Assembly (NCBI GenBank): GCA_029932055.1
Contig: JAOZQU010000001.1
Location: 1-50,871 of the forward strand
DNA length: 50,871 nt
Direction: 5' to 3'
DNA from: Desulfocapsa sp.
GTDB lineage: Bacteria > Desulfobacterota > Desulfobulbia > Desulfobulbales > Desulfocapsaceae
Part shown: piece by piece, positions 3,973 to 10,681 of the stretch
Layout: every line of letters starts with the position of its first letter
Numbering within the stretch: the stretch's first letter is position 1
The notes under the pieces: model-generated
Database searches by the model: none
Seen by the model: the letters and a program-made list of their open reading frames with translations, nothing else
Told to the model about the DNA's origin: nothing
Position numbers and translations under genes: made by a program

Positions 3973-6360
3973 ATGAACAACAAAGGAGCAAGACTTACCA
4001 TCAGCGGGATAGCATCTTTGCTCATCCTGCTTGCAGCTACGGCCGGTACCGCATGGGCTGAAAATCACGATTTAGTGATACAACCGGCTATTGATGTATC
4101 TTCGCTTAGTTCCGCAAATTGGAAATCTCCTGATATAAAAATCGGCGCGGATTTTGGTGATCCAGCGGTGCCGGATATCATCAGACGGGGCATCTCCAAT
4201 CCAATTTATTCACGCTTTTACATCAACGGTATTCAGGATTTTTCGGTTCCATCCGGTGGGGTGGAGCTGCGTTTGCACTATCGTGACGCTCTCCTTGGTG
4301 ATACGCCGCCCGCTCTAAGTGATCCGAGTTGGCAGGCAATTGGGACGTTGCCTGCCACATTTATTCCATCGGATGGACCCTTTGCTATTACAAGGACTTG
4401 GCCTGACGACTTTCCATCGGTGACGAACAAATCCGTGCCTTGGGTTGCACCATCTCTTGGAGAGTATTTTCATATTCGTTCGGAGGTAGCTTACCTCGGT
4501 GGCAGTGTGACTGACGAAAATCCTGATAATAATGTGGCGGTATCATTCTATGAGAGCCTCTCCGGCTTCATTGATGTGGTTCTGTTACACGATACCTCAG
4601 GGAGTATGGGGTACTACTTATTTGACGGCATGCCCTATATTGATCATGCAAAGGCGAGGGCGTCGGGATTCATCTCTGCGCTTAGTGACACCAGCAACCG
4701 GTTGGCGGTCGTTGAGTTCAGCAGCAATTTTACCAGCGGCAGCAATGATGTGTGGCCGACACCAGGTTCCTTGCAGCTGGCAACTATCGCGAACAAGAAT
4801 CTTGCTATCGCTGCAATAGGCGGTTTGACAGACGGGGGAGGGACGCCCTTGGGGGCAGGCCTGCAAAGGGCAATCGATCTTTTACTTGCACCGCCTTCGG
4901 TTCCAGATCCCATCGTGAGAAAAAAGGTCATCCTGCTTCTCAGTGACGGTTATGAAAATCAAGGTACATTGCGTGCATGCTCCGGTGCTGATCCTCTGGC
5001 GCCCTGCGTTGGTGAGAGCCTTCTTGCTCAATTACAGACCAACAATATCCGTGTATTTTCTCTTGCGCTGGGCACGGCTGCCTGGACCGAATGCCTGGAT
5101 TGCCTGGCCTCCGAGAGTGGTGGGCAGTGGTATACCACACCGGATCCCGGAATCAATATGGCCGAAGTCTATCTGCATATGCAACATGCATATTCCACCG
5201 ATGATCTATACAGCATTGATCGAGGTACGAGCGGAGGCGGAGATGATGCCTATGCGACGAACTTCGAAGGTGTGGATGATGTTTTGTATTTTATCCTCGC
5301 GTGGGATGATCTCGAAGCGCAATTGAACTTTCAGTTGCAAAGGCCGGGCGGTTCGTGGGCTGATCCGAGTGCGCTCTCCAATGCAACGGTATTCAGTGGT
5401 AATGGCTACCTTGTCGTCCGCATCGCAAAAACGTTGGTTGGTAATTGGGGATACCGGGTAACGGGCGACGATGGCGAGCGTTATCTTGCCGCGGTTCGCT
5501 CGGATCGTGTGGGAGTACGCCTGGCAGTGGATGCAATTTCCAGGGGATTTGTTGGCGACGCCATTGATATCAAGGCTCGACTCAGCAGGTATGGGAAGCC
5601 GATCGTAGATGCCAAACTGAACGCCACCGTGCAGGTGCCGGCACAGGTTTCGCTGGATTCCAGGTTGAGACAATTGTCGCGCGACTATATGTTGAAAAAT
5701 CATGCCATACCGCTCGATCCAAGTGATTTGAAGCAGAATCCCGACATTTGGCAACGAGCCTCGTTTATTAAGAAGATCACAGGCGGCAAACCGGAGAGCC
5801 TGGTGCAGACACGTCCTGTTTCTGTTGCATTGAATCACGTTGGCGATGGCGTGTACTCGGGTAGCCTGGCAAACGATACGAAAATCTCGGGCGCTTATAA
5901 AGTCACCGTAAACTACAGTGATCAGGGGACCAATCGTACACAATCACAACCGGTCTGGTTAAAACAGGGAGTGATTGATCAGGCCAGGTCACGCGCTGAA
6001 ATCGTGGAGATTAAAGCAAATGATGATACGACGCAGTGGTTGTTGCGCGTTTACCCCGTAGACCGTTTCGACAACGCAATTACCGATACTTCCTTACTGC
6101 AGCAGGTGGAGGTAAGTATTAACGGAGGCCATGTGGACAAGGCACCGGAGGTAGTGTTCGATAGCGCATTTCAACAACCGGTAATTGCTGCATCCGGTAG
6201 CGTACCGCGGCTGCAAAGTGTCTCCATAGGTGGGGAACAATTGCAGATCATTGCGGATAGCGTCCCGGATGAAGACGGTGGCTACGGGTTGATCATTATA
6301 GCTCTATTGATCCTGATTGCACTGGCTCTAGCCTGGTTCTTGTGGCGCCGTCGGACATAG
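3973..6360 (+). CDS. Secreted, C-terminally anchored vWA-domain protein
   Basis: Signal peptide (AWA-E), WKSPDI N-domain, MIDAS DTSGS...GGTP...LSDG, beta-rich C-domains, C-terminal GGYG + hydrophobic helix + RRRT. Confidence 0.85.
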   Translation: MNNKGARLTISGIASLLILLAATAGTAWAENHDLVIQPAIDVSSLSSANWKSPDIKIGADFGDPAVPDIIRRGISNPIYSRFYINGIQDFSVPSGGVELRLHYRDALLGDTPPALSDPSWQAIGTLPATFIPSDGPFAITRTWPDDFPSVTNKSVPWVAPSLGEYFHIRSEVAYLGGSVTDENPDNNVAVSFYESLSGFIDVVLLHDTSGSMGYYLFDGMPYIDHAKARASGFISALSDTSNRLAVVEFSSNFTSGSNDVWPTPGSLQLATIANKNLAIAAIGGLTDGGGTPLGAGLQRAIDLLLAPPSVPDPIVRKKVILLLSDGYENQGTLRACSGADPLAPCVGESLLAQLQTNNIRVFSLALGTAAWTECLDCLASESGGQWYTTPDPGINMAEVYLHMQHAYSTDDLYSIDRGTSGGGDDAYATNFEGVDDVLYFILAWDDLEAQLNFQLQRPGGSWADPSALSNATVFSGNGYLVVRIAKTLVGNWGYRVTGDDGERYLAAVRSDRVGVRLAVDAISRGFVGDAIDIKARLSRYGKPIVDAKLNATVQVPAQVSLDSRLRQLSRDYMLKNHAIPLDPSDLKQNPDIWQRASFIKKITGGKPESLVQTRPVSVALNHVGDGVYSGSLANDTKISGAYKVTVNYSDQGTNRTQSQPVWLKQGVIDQARSRAEIVEIKANDDTTQWLLRVYPVDRFDNAITDTSLLQQVEVSINGGHVDKAPEVVFDSAFQQPVIAASGSVPRLQSVSIGGEQLQIIADSVPDEDGGYGLIIIALLILIALALAWFLWRRRT

Positions 6361-6409: not shown

Positions 6410-8086
6410 ATGACATATGCTCAAAGAATACGTTATGCAAAAAATTACCAGATTCTTCTCCTGTTGCCATTTTTCATATTTTTGCTGTGGTCGCCAACCA
6501 CAACCTTCGCTGCAGACTACTTTGTCTGGGGCCGTGTGTATAGCGCGACACCGTTGACAACTGGCGAAGAGCCACCAAATCACGAGCTTAGCGGGGTGCC
6601 GGCCGAACAGATCGTCGGTGAGGGGCTGATCCCACAAGTGACGCGCAATTTGCTAAAGATTAAAGTCCTCGCTGCAAGTGACGGCAGCGAGCTGGGGAGC
6701 TACGTCACCCGACATGACGGTGGATACCTGGTCTCGTTTACAGCAACGCCAAGCTCGGGCAGTGACATCGCCATACGCTTTGTCATCGAGGAACTGGCCA
6801 CCAGTAAGACTTTGCTCGAAAGCGATGAATTGGCACTTTCATCCTGGCCCACGCCCAACATACGCTTTTTGCTCATTGAAGAGGATCTCAGTGAAATCAG
6901 CGGCGGTGGTGCAGTTACAACAATGGCAGCTCCAGGTCAATACACCGGCATTTTTACGAGGGTGGGTAAGATTGAACTGGAGACCGATAGCGTGAGACTG
7001 ATCAACATCGCTACGGGAAGGGCCACCGTTCCTGATCCGATTTCTGGTCAGCTGCACATACCCGCCTACAAAGACTCGCCATTTGGCGGTAATCTTTATT
7101 TGTTCGGCGCATTCAGCCAATATTTCTATGGCCCAACAAGCCCGCCGGATAATCCAACGATTTATTATAAGATTCGCATCGATGATCTTGGCACCAGCAC
7201 CACGGGGTACATGGACGATACCCTGGTTAAGACAAAATATACAGTCAATTTCGGAGCCGGCACTGTGGATACGCAACGCGTCACGTTGGGACCAAATGAT
7301 GGCGGTGGCCTTCCAGGCTGTATCGAAGCAGGGGTGCCGGTCTGTTATGAGCTCACTCCGATGTCGGCAGGCGCCAACGTCTTCTGGAGTTTTCCCGACC
7401 TGGTTGCCCTCTGGCGCACCGGTGGACTCAATGGCGACTATAGGCTCCACTTGGAGCAGGTGGGTTTGAACAATTCGGGCATGTTCCAGCCATTTACCGA
7501 TTTCACCAATCTCAAGCTGAACCTGGACAACGTTGCACCAGTGGCTCTCATCAATCCTCTGCAAACAGGTGATCCTGATACGCCAAGGGTCTATACACCG
7601 AACCCTGCAAATCCCACCATTGGGGGCGACCTCATGACTATGACTTCTCCCCTGGGATCTTTCCCGGGTGACTATGGTGGCTCAGCCGATCCAACCTGCG
7701 CTATATTGAGTCTTGAGGAACCATCATTGGGGCATCACTATTTGGCTTTCAAACTGACCGCCTCTCATGATAATGGTTTTTTACGTTATTGGGATTTTTT
7801 ATACAAACGCAATGACACAGGCTACCAACGACACATTGGAAAGATATTTGATGGCAGCACCATGGTAGATTATGGAACCGTGCAGGTCGCGAGTGCTGAG
7901 ACCGGTCAAGGTGGTTTCCAAGACAGGTATCTCTATCTAAACAGCGAATATCTCCAGCCTGGTGGTGGTACGGATCTTGGAAGTTGTGGATATAGGTTCC
8001 TGATAAGGGCAACGACCCGTACGACCGACGGTTATCACTATTTGCGGTATCGTTCGGATGAGGACATACATTACATTGTGCGCTAA
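6410..8086 (+). CDS. Secreted hypothetical protein (beta-rich)
   Basis: 558 aa ORF with RBS GAGGAG and signal peptide (TFA-A). No catalytic motif recognised. Confidence 0.75.
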   Translation: MTYAQRIRYAKNYQILLLLPFFIFLLWSPTTTFAADYFVWGRVYSATPLTTGEEPPNHELSGVPAEQIVGEGLIPQVTRNLLKIKVLAASDGSELGSYVTRHDGGYLVSFTATPSSGSDIAIRFVIEELATSKTLLESDELALSSWPTPNIRFLLIEEDLSEISGGGAVTTMAAPGQYTGIFTRVGKIELETDSVRLINIATGRATVPDPISGQLHIPAYKDSPFGGNLYLFGAFSQYFYGPTSPPDNPTIYYKIRIDDLGTSTTGYMDDTLVKTKYTVNFGAGTVDTQRVTLGPNDGGGLPGCIEAGVPVCYELTPMSAGANVFWSFPDLVALWRTGGLNGDYRLHLEQVGLNNSGMFQPFTDFTNLKLNLDNVAPVALINPLQTGDPDTPRVYTPNPANPTIGGDLMTMTSPLGSFPGDYGGSADPTCAILSLEEPSLGHHYLAFKLTASHDNGFLRYWDFLYKRNDTGYQRHIGKIFDGSTMVDYGTVQVASAETGQGGFQDRYLYLNSEYLQPGGGTDLGSCGYRFLIRATTRTTDGYHYLRYRSDEDIHYIVR

Positions 8087-8184
8087 TCGTTTAGCGTGAA
8101 AAGGATTTCAGGGGAGAGCTATGATGATTTATCTTTGTAATTACTCAGAGCGCGTGAACAGGTTTTAGCAAAGATCCAGGAATT

Positions 8185-8442
8185 ATGTATCTCATTAAGC
8201 TACAGCTGTCTCAGCGCAACAACACTTTTGAGTATGTTCGTCGGATTCCCGGCCTGGATACGCTTACCATAGACGAAGACTATGGAATTGTGTCAATCAG
8301 TCCAAAGCGCGGACTTTATGTAATCCGTGTGCTGGATGATATAGATATTAACAGGATCCGCGCTCTTCCTGAGGTAAGAGGAGTGTACGGAGAGGTGCGC
8401 ATTGCCCCTATAAGTAAGGGGAATAACAATTTGGAGGATTGA
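8185..8442 (+). CDS. Small protein resembling the propeptide of the downstream subtilase (putative inhibitor/chaperone)
   Basis: RBS AGGA. GL..D.Y..V...P...YVIR...GVYGEVRIAPI parallels GL..D.F..V...P...YLLR...GVYSDPRISAI in the protease N-terminus. Confidence 0.7.
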   Translation: MYLIKLQLSQRNNTFEYVRRIPGLDTLTIDEDYGIVSISPKRGLYVIRVLDDIDINRIRALPEVRGVYGEVRIAPISKGNNNLED

Positions 8443-8444
8443 AC

Positions 8445-10082
8445 ATGTCGGAAAAGATTCGTGTACTAATACGAATGGTTCATACCCGGGAAATCAACAT
8501 GGCCATGGCCTCTCCCGGGGCATCGAGTGCGCCCTTTTTAGAGGGACTAGAAGGCTTTCAGATGGACGCGGGGTTCTCTCCCGTGCCGGTACCACAGAAA
8601 GTGCGGCGGCCCCAAGGTGACGCGCGCTCCACTGGGCGTTTGTTTTCGTTCGACATACGCCCGGAGCAATCTACGTATCTATTACGCGGCGAAGTCGAGG
8701 ACGAGCAAGCTCTCGATCGGTTGACCGTCGCAGTAGATCAGGATCCCAATGGTGTCGGGGTGTATTCTGACCCCCGCATCAGCGCCATTGCGGTCTGTCC
8801 GGCTAATCCCATCGGAACCCATAGCGATGTCGAAAGCCGGCTCCAGGTGACCGATCTGCATAACCGCGGTATGAACGGTACGGATGTCGTCGTCGCCATA
8901 GTGGATACTGGTGTCAACATGGCGCATCTGCACAATAAAGGGAAGAATCCCACCTTCGACAGTCAACGTAGCTGGTCACCAGTGCAGGGTTCCGTACTCG
9001 GCGACATGGAGGTAGACCATGGCACTATGTGTGCATTCGACGTCTGCATTGCCGCGCCCAATTGTACGATACTCGACTATGCATTGCTGCAGTCGCAGAC
9101 TCAAGGCGAAACGACTATGGATGGTTTCCTGAGCGATGCTGTAAAAGGCTTCAGCGAGTTGCTGAACCTGATGCTCGGAGACAATCCGCCACGTGCACTG
9201 GTCGTCAATAACAGTTGGGGGATGTTCCATCCATCCTGGGATTTTCCGGTAGGACATTCGGGCAATTACAGTGACAATCCAGAACACCCGTTCAATATTA
9301 TTGTCGAGAGTCTGGAGGACGCTGGTGCCGACATCTTGTTCGCCGCCGGTAACTGTGGTGCGGAATGTGCGGACGGGCGCTGCAGAGGAGAAACCGATCA
9401 GGGGATTTATGGTGCCAACAGTCATATTGCGGTGCTCAGCGTGGCCGGCGTTAGCGTGAACGACGTGCGCCTGGGGTACTCCACCCAGGGGCCCGGTCGA
9501 TTGGATACCAATAAACCGGATATCTGCGCATACACCCATTTCGACGGTTCCGAAGTGTATGACGCCGATGGCGGAACCTCAGCCGCCTGCCCGGTTGCGG
9601 CCGGAGTTGTCGCCGCCATACGCAGCAGATATTCGACGGCAGAGCTCTCTCCGACCCGGCTCAGAAACTTGCTACGGCGTACAGCCAACGATTTGGGGAT
9701 GCAAGGATTCGACTTCGATCACGGTTTTGGCGTCATTGATACTGCCGCTTTATTGAACGCCTTGGATCGACGCGACACGCAGCCATTGCAGGTTGGTCAA
9801 ACAACGTCAGGCACGTTGCCGGAAAGCGGGGCCACCCTGACGTACAAACTAACACTTGGAGATGCGTTGACCATCGCACTCGATGGACCGCAGGGCGTCG
9901 ATTTCGATATCTACATACGCAAAGACGAGCAACCGACCACGGAAGAATACGATTTCCGTGGTTATACCAGTGATGCAAATGAAAAGATCCGCATAGATGC
10001 GGCTTCACCTGGCGATTATTATGTCATGGTGCGCTCATACCGGGGAGGAGGGAGCTTCACCCTGAAAGCGACGCTTGATTGA
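8445..10082 (+). CDS. S8 subtilisin-family serine protease with C-terminal PPC domain, no signal peptide
   Basis: Triad motifs VAIVDTG, DHGT, GGTSAACP; oxyanion AAGN; PPC-like DFDIYIR...GDYYVMVRSY. ATG 8445 follows GGAGG. Confidence 0.92.
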   Translation: MSEKIRVLIRMVHTREINMAMASPGASSAPFLEGLEGFQMDAGFSPVPVPQKVRRPQGDARSTGRLFSFDIRPEQSTYLLRGEVEDEQALDRLTVAVDQDPNGVGVYSDPRISAIAVCPANPIGTHSDVESRLQVTDLHNRGMNGTDVVVAIVDTGVNMAHLHNKGKNPTFDSQRSWSPVQGSVLGDMEVDHGTMCAFDVCIAAPNCTILDYALLQSQTQGETTMDGFLSDAVKGFSELLNLMLGDNPPRALVVNNSWGMFHPSWDFPVGHSGNYSDNPEHPFNIIVESLEDAGADILFAAGNCGAECADGRCRGETDQGIYGANSHIAVLSVAGVSVNDVRLGYSTQGPGRLDTNKPDICAYTHFDGSEVYDADGGTSAACPVAAGVVAAIRSRYSTAELSPTRLRNLLRRTANDLGMQGFDFDHGFGVIDTAALLNALDRRDTQPLQVGQTTSGTLPESGATLTYKLTLGDALTIALDGPQGVDFDIYIRKDEQPTTEEYDFRGYTSDANEKIRIDAASPGDYYVMVRSYRGGGSFTLKATLD

Positions 10083-10239: not shown

Positions 10240-10374
10240 ATGGCAGGTGTTTTCATTAGCTACCGGCGTCAGGATTCCGCGGGCTGGGCAGGGCGCTTGG
10301 CCACGGACCTTTTGGATAGGTTCGGTACAGGGGCAGTTTTTCAAGACATAGACGCCATAGGAGCGGGAGAGGAT
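10240..10374 (+). pseudogene. N-terminal 45 codons of a TIR-domain (TIR_2-like) gene, truncated
   Basis: VFISYRRQDSAGWAGRL...FG...VFQDIDAIGAGED is a typical bacterial TIR start. Similarity ends before the region that would carry the catalytic Glu. Confidence 0.85.
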
Positions 10375-10681
10375 TCAGTGATCAGGGGATACCAAAACTA
10401 TTATGCTGTCCCTGGTAATATGGATCTGATGAAAAGTTTCTATGACCTGACTACCAGAGCATGGCTACGTACACTGAGGCGTCGAAGTCACAAAGGGCAA
10501 AATTATACATGGAAGCGCTTTGAAAAACTAATCAGATGGCTGATACCAAGAGTTAGAATTGTACACCCTTTTCCAGATCAGAGATTTCAGCGTTATTACC
10601 CGAGGTAGGAGCCGTATGAGGTAATACCTCACGTACGGATCTGTACGGGGGATGCCGGGTAACCGGCATTCCTACCGTGAC
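10375..10681 (+). mobile_element. 5'-truncated group II intron remnant (maturase C-terminus + RNA domains V-VI)
   Basis: SVIRGYQNYYAVPGN...LRRRS...W..F...RIVHPFP maturase tail. DV GAGCCGTATGAGGTAATACCTCACGTACGGATC starts at 10609. DVI ATGCCGGGTAACCGGCAT-TCCTACCGTGAC ends at 10681. Confidence 0.9.

Follow-up and report, generated by a model that had tools for sequence, protein, structure and literature searches.

A Stand-Alone Propeptide Homolog Linked to a Prokaryotic Subtilase Family: a Candidate Dedicated Inhibitor

Introduction

Free propeptide-like proteins are described as potent inhibitors (PMC6993865). The stand-alone inhibitors of MEROPS family I9 include Pleurotus POIA1, the yeast peptidase B inhibitor (IB2) and Arabidopsis SPI-1, and Toxoplasma MIC5 is mentioned along with them; according to PMC6993865, all four are eukaryotic and have no significant sequence similarity to propeptides. 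The same source describes Plasmodium SUB1-ProM, a free propeptide-like protein whose gene adjoins subtilase genes with retained propeptides; it probably resides in the parasitophorous vacuole, and its inhibition has been measured. In bacteria, ORF2 of Aeromonas sobria is encoded directly downstream of asp and binds the catalytic site with its C-terminus, with IC50 of 84 nM (PMC5638518). As ASP lacks a propeptide (PMC5638518, PMC9549277), ORF2 replaces it. Finally, the Myxococcus xanthus subtilase PopC, which has no signal peptide, is held by a partner, PopD, that is lost on a trigger (PMC6434023).

The locus described here, a small gene next to a subtilase gene in Desulfocapsa sp., resembles each of these systems in part. 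Like the stand-alone I9 inhibitors, its small protein is encoded by a gene of its own and is predicted to fold like a propeptide, with POIA1 among the structural matches, but unlike them it is prokaryotic, detectably homologous to the propeptide of the neighboring enzyme and gene-linked to it. As with SUB1-ProM, a free propeptide-like gene adjoins a gene for a subtilase that keeps its own propeptide, and both the capping residue and the S4 tail residue are conserved (PMC6993865); inhibition by the small protein is, however, a prediction, and neither protein of the pair shows a signal peptide. The arrangement of a bacterial subtilase with a small adjacent gene is shared with ASP/ORF2, the C-terminal binding to the active site being measured for ORF2 and putative here. 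ASP, however, is secreted (PMC5638518) and has its missing propeptide replaced by ORF2; our protease keeps its propeptide, and the free copy comes in addition. With PopC/PopD the pair shares a subtilase without a signal peptide and, presumably, a partner that holds it in check until a trigger; PopD is described as blocking secretion, and the available part of PMC6434023 does not mention propeptide homology of PopD. A search of the openly available literature found no description of the small-protein family.

Results

Gene Layout

The window, that is, the whole analyzed stretch of 50,871 nt (contig JAOZQU010000001.1), contains the following features of the pair.

8185..8442, + strand: small gene, an 85-aa ORF with a profile match to the prodomain and an AlphaFold2 model, without a Pfam family
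8392..8412, + strand: tail of the small protein, E70-V-R-I73-A-P75-I76, predicted helix-capping position and P4–P1 strand (from column counts, putative register)
8433..8438, + strand: GGAGGA ribosome-binding site of the protease gene, read from the sequence, within the last codons of the small gene
8445..8789, + strand: the protease's own propeptide, residues 1–115 (structure model), without a signal peptide; predicted self-cleavage after I115, at a putative site
8790..9773, + strand: S8 catalytic domain (Pfam PF00082, E = 1.3e-25), catalytic residues and four Cys invariant
9858..10037, + strand: C-terminal PPC domain (Pfam PF04151, E = 4e-13); the protease gene ends at 10082

The protease ORF (8445–10082, + strand) encodes 545 aa, an intact S8 subtilase with a PPC domain. 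The TGA stop codon of the small gene ends at 8442 and the protease ATG starts at 8445, leaving a gap of two base pairs (AC), as reported in the initial annotation; all six motifs quoted there are indeed found in the two ORF translations. Since the GGAGGA site of the protease gene sits in the last codons of the small gene, the two genes are likely translationally coupled, and the overlap of this site with the acidic end of the small protein may constrain that end at the RNA level. Scanning for promoters and terminators yielded no more signals than in shuffled sequences. The GC content of the protease gene is 54–56%, compared to about 45% downstream.

As for the surroundings, a 15-codon ORF (8121–8168), preceded by a purine-rich site and located directly before the small gene, is probably incidental. 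Farther upstream are two co-oriented genes (3973–6360 and 6410–8086), both for proteins whose N-terminus is hydrophobic. The first encodes a vWA protein of 795 aa, which has a hydrophobic C-terminus as well, and the second a protein of 558 aa without a match in Pfam or NCBIfam; they are absent from other loci of the pair. A 122-aa ORF near 10240–10681 begins with a TIR fragment (TIR_2 residues 4–45, E = 0.0035, Pfam), and its second half presumably represents the terminal part of a group II intron maturase; it is followed by a group II intron 3′ end at 10607–10681 (Rfam RF00029, 43 bits). Probably, a TIR gene has decayed here and become joined to what is left of an intron.

Homology of the Small Protein to the Propeptide

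Pairwise BLASTP gave no alignment between the small protein and protease residues 1–122, and therefore the motif match between the small ORF and the prodomain, proposed in the initial annotation, needed family data. The protease scan of GTDB genomes yielded 102 relatives, of which the best 80 loci were analyzed; the small-protein profile was seeded on 13 close homologs and then run iteratively against every six-frame ORF in them. The hhalign comparison of 82 small proteins with 70 prodomains produced an alignment of 77 columns that begins at the first strand and reaches the tail (probability 97.2, E = 3.1e-11), and it pairs exactly the motifs named earlier. In a local rerun the score was 66.7. 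Among the controls, 100 column shuffles gave a mean of 10.1 and a maximum of 17.5, the reversed alignment scored 8.4, and protease windows lacking the prodomain did not exceed 18.4. The main difference is an insertion of about 23 columns in the prodomain. Thus, as judged by family profiles and controls, the small protein is a homolog of the subtilase propeptide over the whole propeptide, and the initially noted resemblance stands at this level. For the pair in the window, 14 of 50 positions in four blocks are identical; the block-shuffle null for this pair (score 64 vs. maximum 19) overstates the similarity, as the blocks were picked from the profile alignment, and we relied on the column-shuffle control instead.

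Neither the small protein nor the prodomain was given a name by sequence searches in Pfam, NCBIfam, PADLOC and PDB (for the small protein, PADLOC and NCBIfam returned no match at all), and Pfam Inhibitor_I9 at E ≤ 0.1 matched none of the 82 small proteins and none of the 70 prodomains. The nearest ESM Atlas clusters are comprised of unnamed hypothetical proteins. Five long matches from the search of representatives (P0032, P0036, P0038, P0050, and P0059) are repeat proteins of the LRR, NHL, HYR or Ig type; we rejected them as chance hits, not fusions.

In a quick tree of 50 columns, a single branch separates all 77 small proteins from the 70 prodomains (SH-aLRT 99), and in only 37 of 68 cases does the score of a small protein against its own prodomain exceed that against the average other one. 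As the small proteins group together and show no special closeness to their own prodomains, the small gene is, on this phylogenetic evidence, the product of one ancient duplication. Hence, of the earlier idea that the gene duplicates the adjacent propeptide, the homology holds, while a recent local copy is rejected. The small gene is under purifying selection, with dN/dS of 0.15 and 0.16 against two relatives. After the duplication the small gene and the protease gene, by sequence comparison, diverged together: identities of the small protein and the catalytic domain co-vary (Spearman 0.65, the relatives not being independent), and the nearest neighbor by one is in the top three by the other in 53 of 68 cases, with the same dependence among kin.

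Predicted Fold and Tail of the Small Protein

The AlphaFold2 model of the small protein (pLDDT 88) has two helices on a four-stranded sheet. Its top Foldseek match is the BPN′ propeptide (3cnq_P, E = 0.052), with none at E ≤ 0.001; by VIA, the propeptide 3bgo_P (Z 5.9, rmsd 2.6, 66 aligned) ties with RRM domains, with none at Z ≥ 8, and POIA1 has Z 5.2 (rmsd 3.1, 66 aligned). These matches are weak, and RRM and ACT domains tie with propeptides. ORF2 (3wqb) is not among the listed fold matches, which leaves room for a shared fold. Both folds, as proposed for prediction in the initial annotation, are predicted to be propeptide-like, with Z 34.5 for the protease precursor (see below) and with weak matches for the small protein.

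The family tail consensus is [ND]-P-[RK]-I-[EA]-P-F. The capping position is occupied in 77 small proteins by Asn (41), Asp (34), Ser (1) and Glu (1, the protein from the window), and Ile at P4 (71), Pro at P2 (64) and Phe at P1 (55) are among the most conserved columns; the P4–P1 register is derived from a single aspartate, prodomain D109, equated with BPN′ Asp71. We take the I-x-P-F tail to resemble the standard subtilisin substrate AAPF. Beyond P1, the 74 motif-anchored tails have a median of five residues, are net negative in 55 cases and carry Pro at P2′ in 35; three of them stop at P1, and a few are cut at 100 residues. Pro at P2′ would hinder cleavage. The protein from the window departs from the consensus at three tail positions, having Glu for Asp/Asn, Ile for Phe, and Lys for this Pro.

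The Protease and Its Own Propeptide

The PF00082 match covers protease residues 145–429, and D154, H192, N303, and S379, constituting the Asp-His-Ser triad and the oxyanion Asn, are invariant in all 71 aligned proteases; thus, by sequence, the neighbor is an S8 subtilase with an intact catalytic triad. All 71 catalytic domains also share four invariant cysteines, C118, C304, C308, and C313 (window 8796–9383); three belong to the loop that follows the oxyanion Asn, and the fourth lies shortly after the predicted site of cleavage.

In the precursor model (pLDDT 85), residues 3–438 can be superposed on unprocessed pro-subtilisin E (Z 34.5, rmsd 3.4, 335 aligned, compared to about 257 for mature subtilisins), and the prodomain superposes on solved propeptides. 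On this basis, residues 1–115 are predicted to be a normally docked propeptide. With what we take to be the BPN′ register, six residues beyond the capping Asp, D109 places P1 of the protease at I115; unlike P1 of the small proteins, this predicted P1 is variable in the family (Cys 17, Ile 12, Thr 12, and Gln 11 of 71). None of the 71 aligned proteases lacks the propeptide, with D109 invariant, D41 and R81 near-invariant, and dN/dS of 0.10–0.12. D109 is taken as the equivalent of the helix-capping Asp71 of the BPN′ propeptide (PMC6993865).

These observations bear on the role of the small protein as an external chaperone, mainly aiding the folding or maturation of the protease in trans and inhibiting it transiently, as ORF2 does for Aeromonas ASP. 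The bacterial precedent with an adjacent gene (PMC5638518) and the long insertion in the protease's propeptide relative to the small protein speak for it, and the features of the small protein behind the inhibitor reading would also serve a chaperone. However, ASP is propeptide-deficient (PMC5638518, PMC9549277), while here the propeptide is retained throughout the family, is constrained at the positions listed above and has the canonical location in the model. As it is predicted to dock as in pro-subtilisins, the protease would need no substitute chaperone, and we consider this role quite unlikely.

The C-terminal part of the protease is less constant: the PPC tail is present in 13 of 71 family members and CARDB in 5 of 71, other tails replacing PPC in most relatives. 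In 37 of 71 proteases PPC is replaced by an unnamed region with CxxxPxxC motifs, often repeated (like ICxxYPxLC; e.g., in loci L022, L034, and L063). A CxC motif ends 37 of 71 proteases, and others have poly-Cys runs and CARDB. A metal- or redox-sensing function of the Cys-rich C-terminus is possible.

Signal Peptides and Location

The first propeptide strand begins within ten residues of the start in 70 of 71 proteases (the start codons being chosen by us), and an in-frame stop is found within 15 codons upstream in 36 of 72. Values of N-terminal hydropathy above 2.0 occur in 4 of 71 proteases and in 2 of 82 small proteins, compared to 2.5–3.2 in three secreted-looking ORFs from the window. 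By start position and hydropathy, the protease and the small protein show no signal peptide, as initially noted for the protease. This does not prove cytoplasmic location, as PopC lacks a signal peptide, yet is periplasmic and secreted (PMC6434023). The four invariant cysteines, odd for a signal-less enzyme, fit disulfides, and hence an exported enzyme, equally well as a cytoplasmic metal site.

The small protein might then be a different kind of holding or guarding partner, retaining the protease before signal-independent export, as PopD, which complexes PopC and blocks its secretion (PMC6434023), or protecting the cell against other subtilases, four further S8 matches being present in the host genome. 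The invariant cysteines of the catalytic domain are compatible with the former, but no conserved export genes were found nearby by ORF clustering and Pfam analysis of the flanks, and strict linkage and co-divergence favor the neighboring protease as the partner, so that we regard this role as very unlikely.

Linkage and Distribution of the Pair

In the best 80 of 102 relatives, the small gene flanks the protease gene in 76 loci, being downstream in 61, upstream in 14, and convergent in one, with gaps of 1–325 bp in the 70 loci measured. As it is found in all three arrangements, the linkage survives changes of gene order. Three of the four exceptions are at contig edges: the contig starts at the protease 5′ end (L004 and L006) or ends inside the protease (L071). 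In the fourth, L014 (4375–5996), the small gene is absent, the protease is 5′-truncated and has lost the propeptide, Asp and His; it abuts a gene labeled PAS-like from its sequence. In the reverse search, a family protease is present in 10 of 11 metagenome loci found via the small gene. The remaining locus holds an orphan small gene (L093, 3995–4222) that is truncated at the C-terminal tail; within 4 kb on either side of it, no family protease is seen.

The pair spans 12 named bacterial phyla and two archaea among the same best 80 of 102 relatives, with Erythrobacter, Qipengyuania, Moorena, and Noviluteimonas as cultured hosts, and the phyla are intermixed on the protease tree. The small gene was not found in 250 further genomes from the order of the host, 11 of which belong to its genus. 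Clustering of 640 ORFs from the loci of the pair revealed no conserved third gene or substrate. Pfam analysis of flanking ORFs (132 of the 135 nearest, three near-duplicates being dropped) yielded mostly housekeeping functions, five integrases or transposases, and no recurrent defence family. No relatives of the protease were found in viral contigs, and a phage origin was rejected on this ground. The pair reads as a sporadic, self-contained two-gene cassette.

Such a distribution could suggest a toxin–antitoxin-like or triggered module, with a host-toxic protease and a labile small protein as the antidote, either addictive or firing on stress or infection; this would share the binding mechanism of a dedicated inhibitor and add a lethal role. 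It agrees with the very patchy occurrence of two genes, the mixing of phyla, the mobile-element genes in the flanks, the presence of the small gene at every whole, intact protease locus (best 80 of 102 relatives), and a weak PADLOC subtilase match (E = 2e-7). However, the latter is generic S8 similarity, no recurrent defence neighbors were seen in the Pfam analysis of the flanks, and no relatives in viral contigs. The dead protease without a small gene in L014 adds no independent support, as a single deletion explains both losses. Thus, this part of the initial annotation, a toxin–antitoxin or triggerable protease, finds no direct support, and we consider it rather unlikely. A bolder version, to which we also assign a low probability, is a horizontally spread, self-contained protease switch, where a signal-less Cys-rich subtilase would be armed intracellularly, a free copy of its propeptide that resists cleavage would hold it, and regulated loss of this copy would set the protease off in response to stress, in defence or in cell death, the antitoxin being a duplicated toxin prodomain.

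Discussion

The small protein is probably a dedicated trans inhibitor that binds the matured neighboring subtilase in the propeptide fashion; this reading, which we favor, rests on homology, tail conservation, linkage, and precedent. Given the strict linkage and co-divergence, the adjacent protease is the likely partner.

The proposed mechanism is as follows. The protease would fold on its own propeptide and then cut itself, presumably after I115. The co-expressed free copy would pack its sheet on two surface helices of the matured protease, with residue 70 (Asp/Asn; Glu here) capping a helix and I73-x-P75-I76 (I-x-P-F in most members) lying in the S4–S1 subsites. It would thus act as a standing competitive inhibitor, keeping the signal-less protease quiet once the protease's own propeptide has been destroyed. 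Loss or dilution of the small protein, or its staying behind, would set the activity free.

To specialists on proteases, such a mechanism would come as no surprise. The pair defines an unnamed small-protein family, real and widespread. In the literature accessible to us, the characterized free propeptide-type inhibitors are eukaryotic, and in the bacterial case with an adjacent gene, ORF2 replaces a missing propeptide. If the inhibitor reading is true, the pair would be a prokaryotic case in which the enzyme keeps its propeptide alongside a separate, gene-linked copy, with the duplication traceable in the sequence. The pair lends itself to a simple test of the way in which a built-in, transient cap may become a standing inhibitor.
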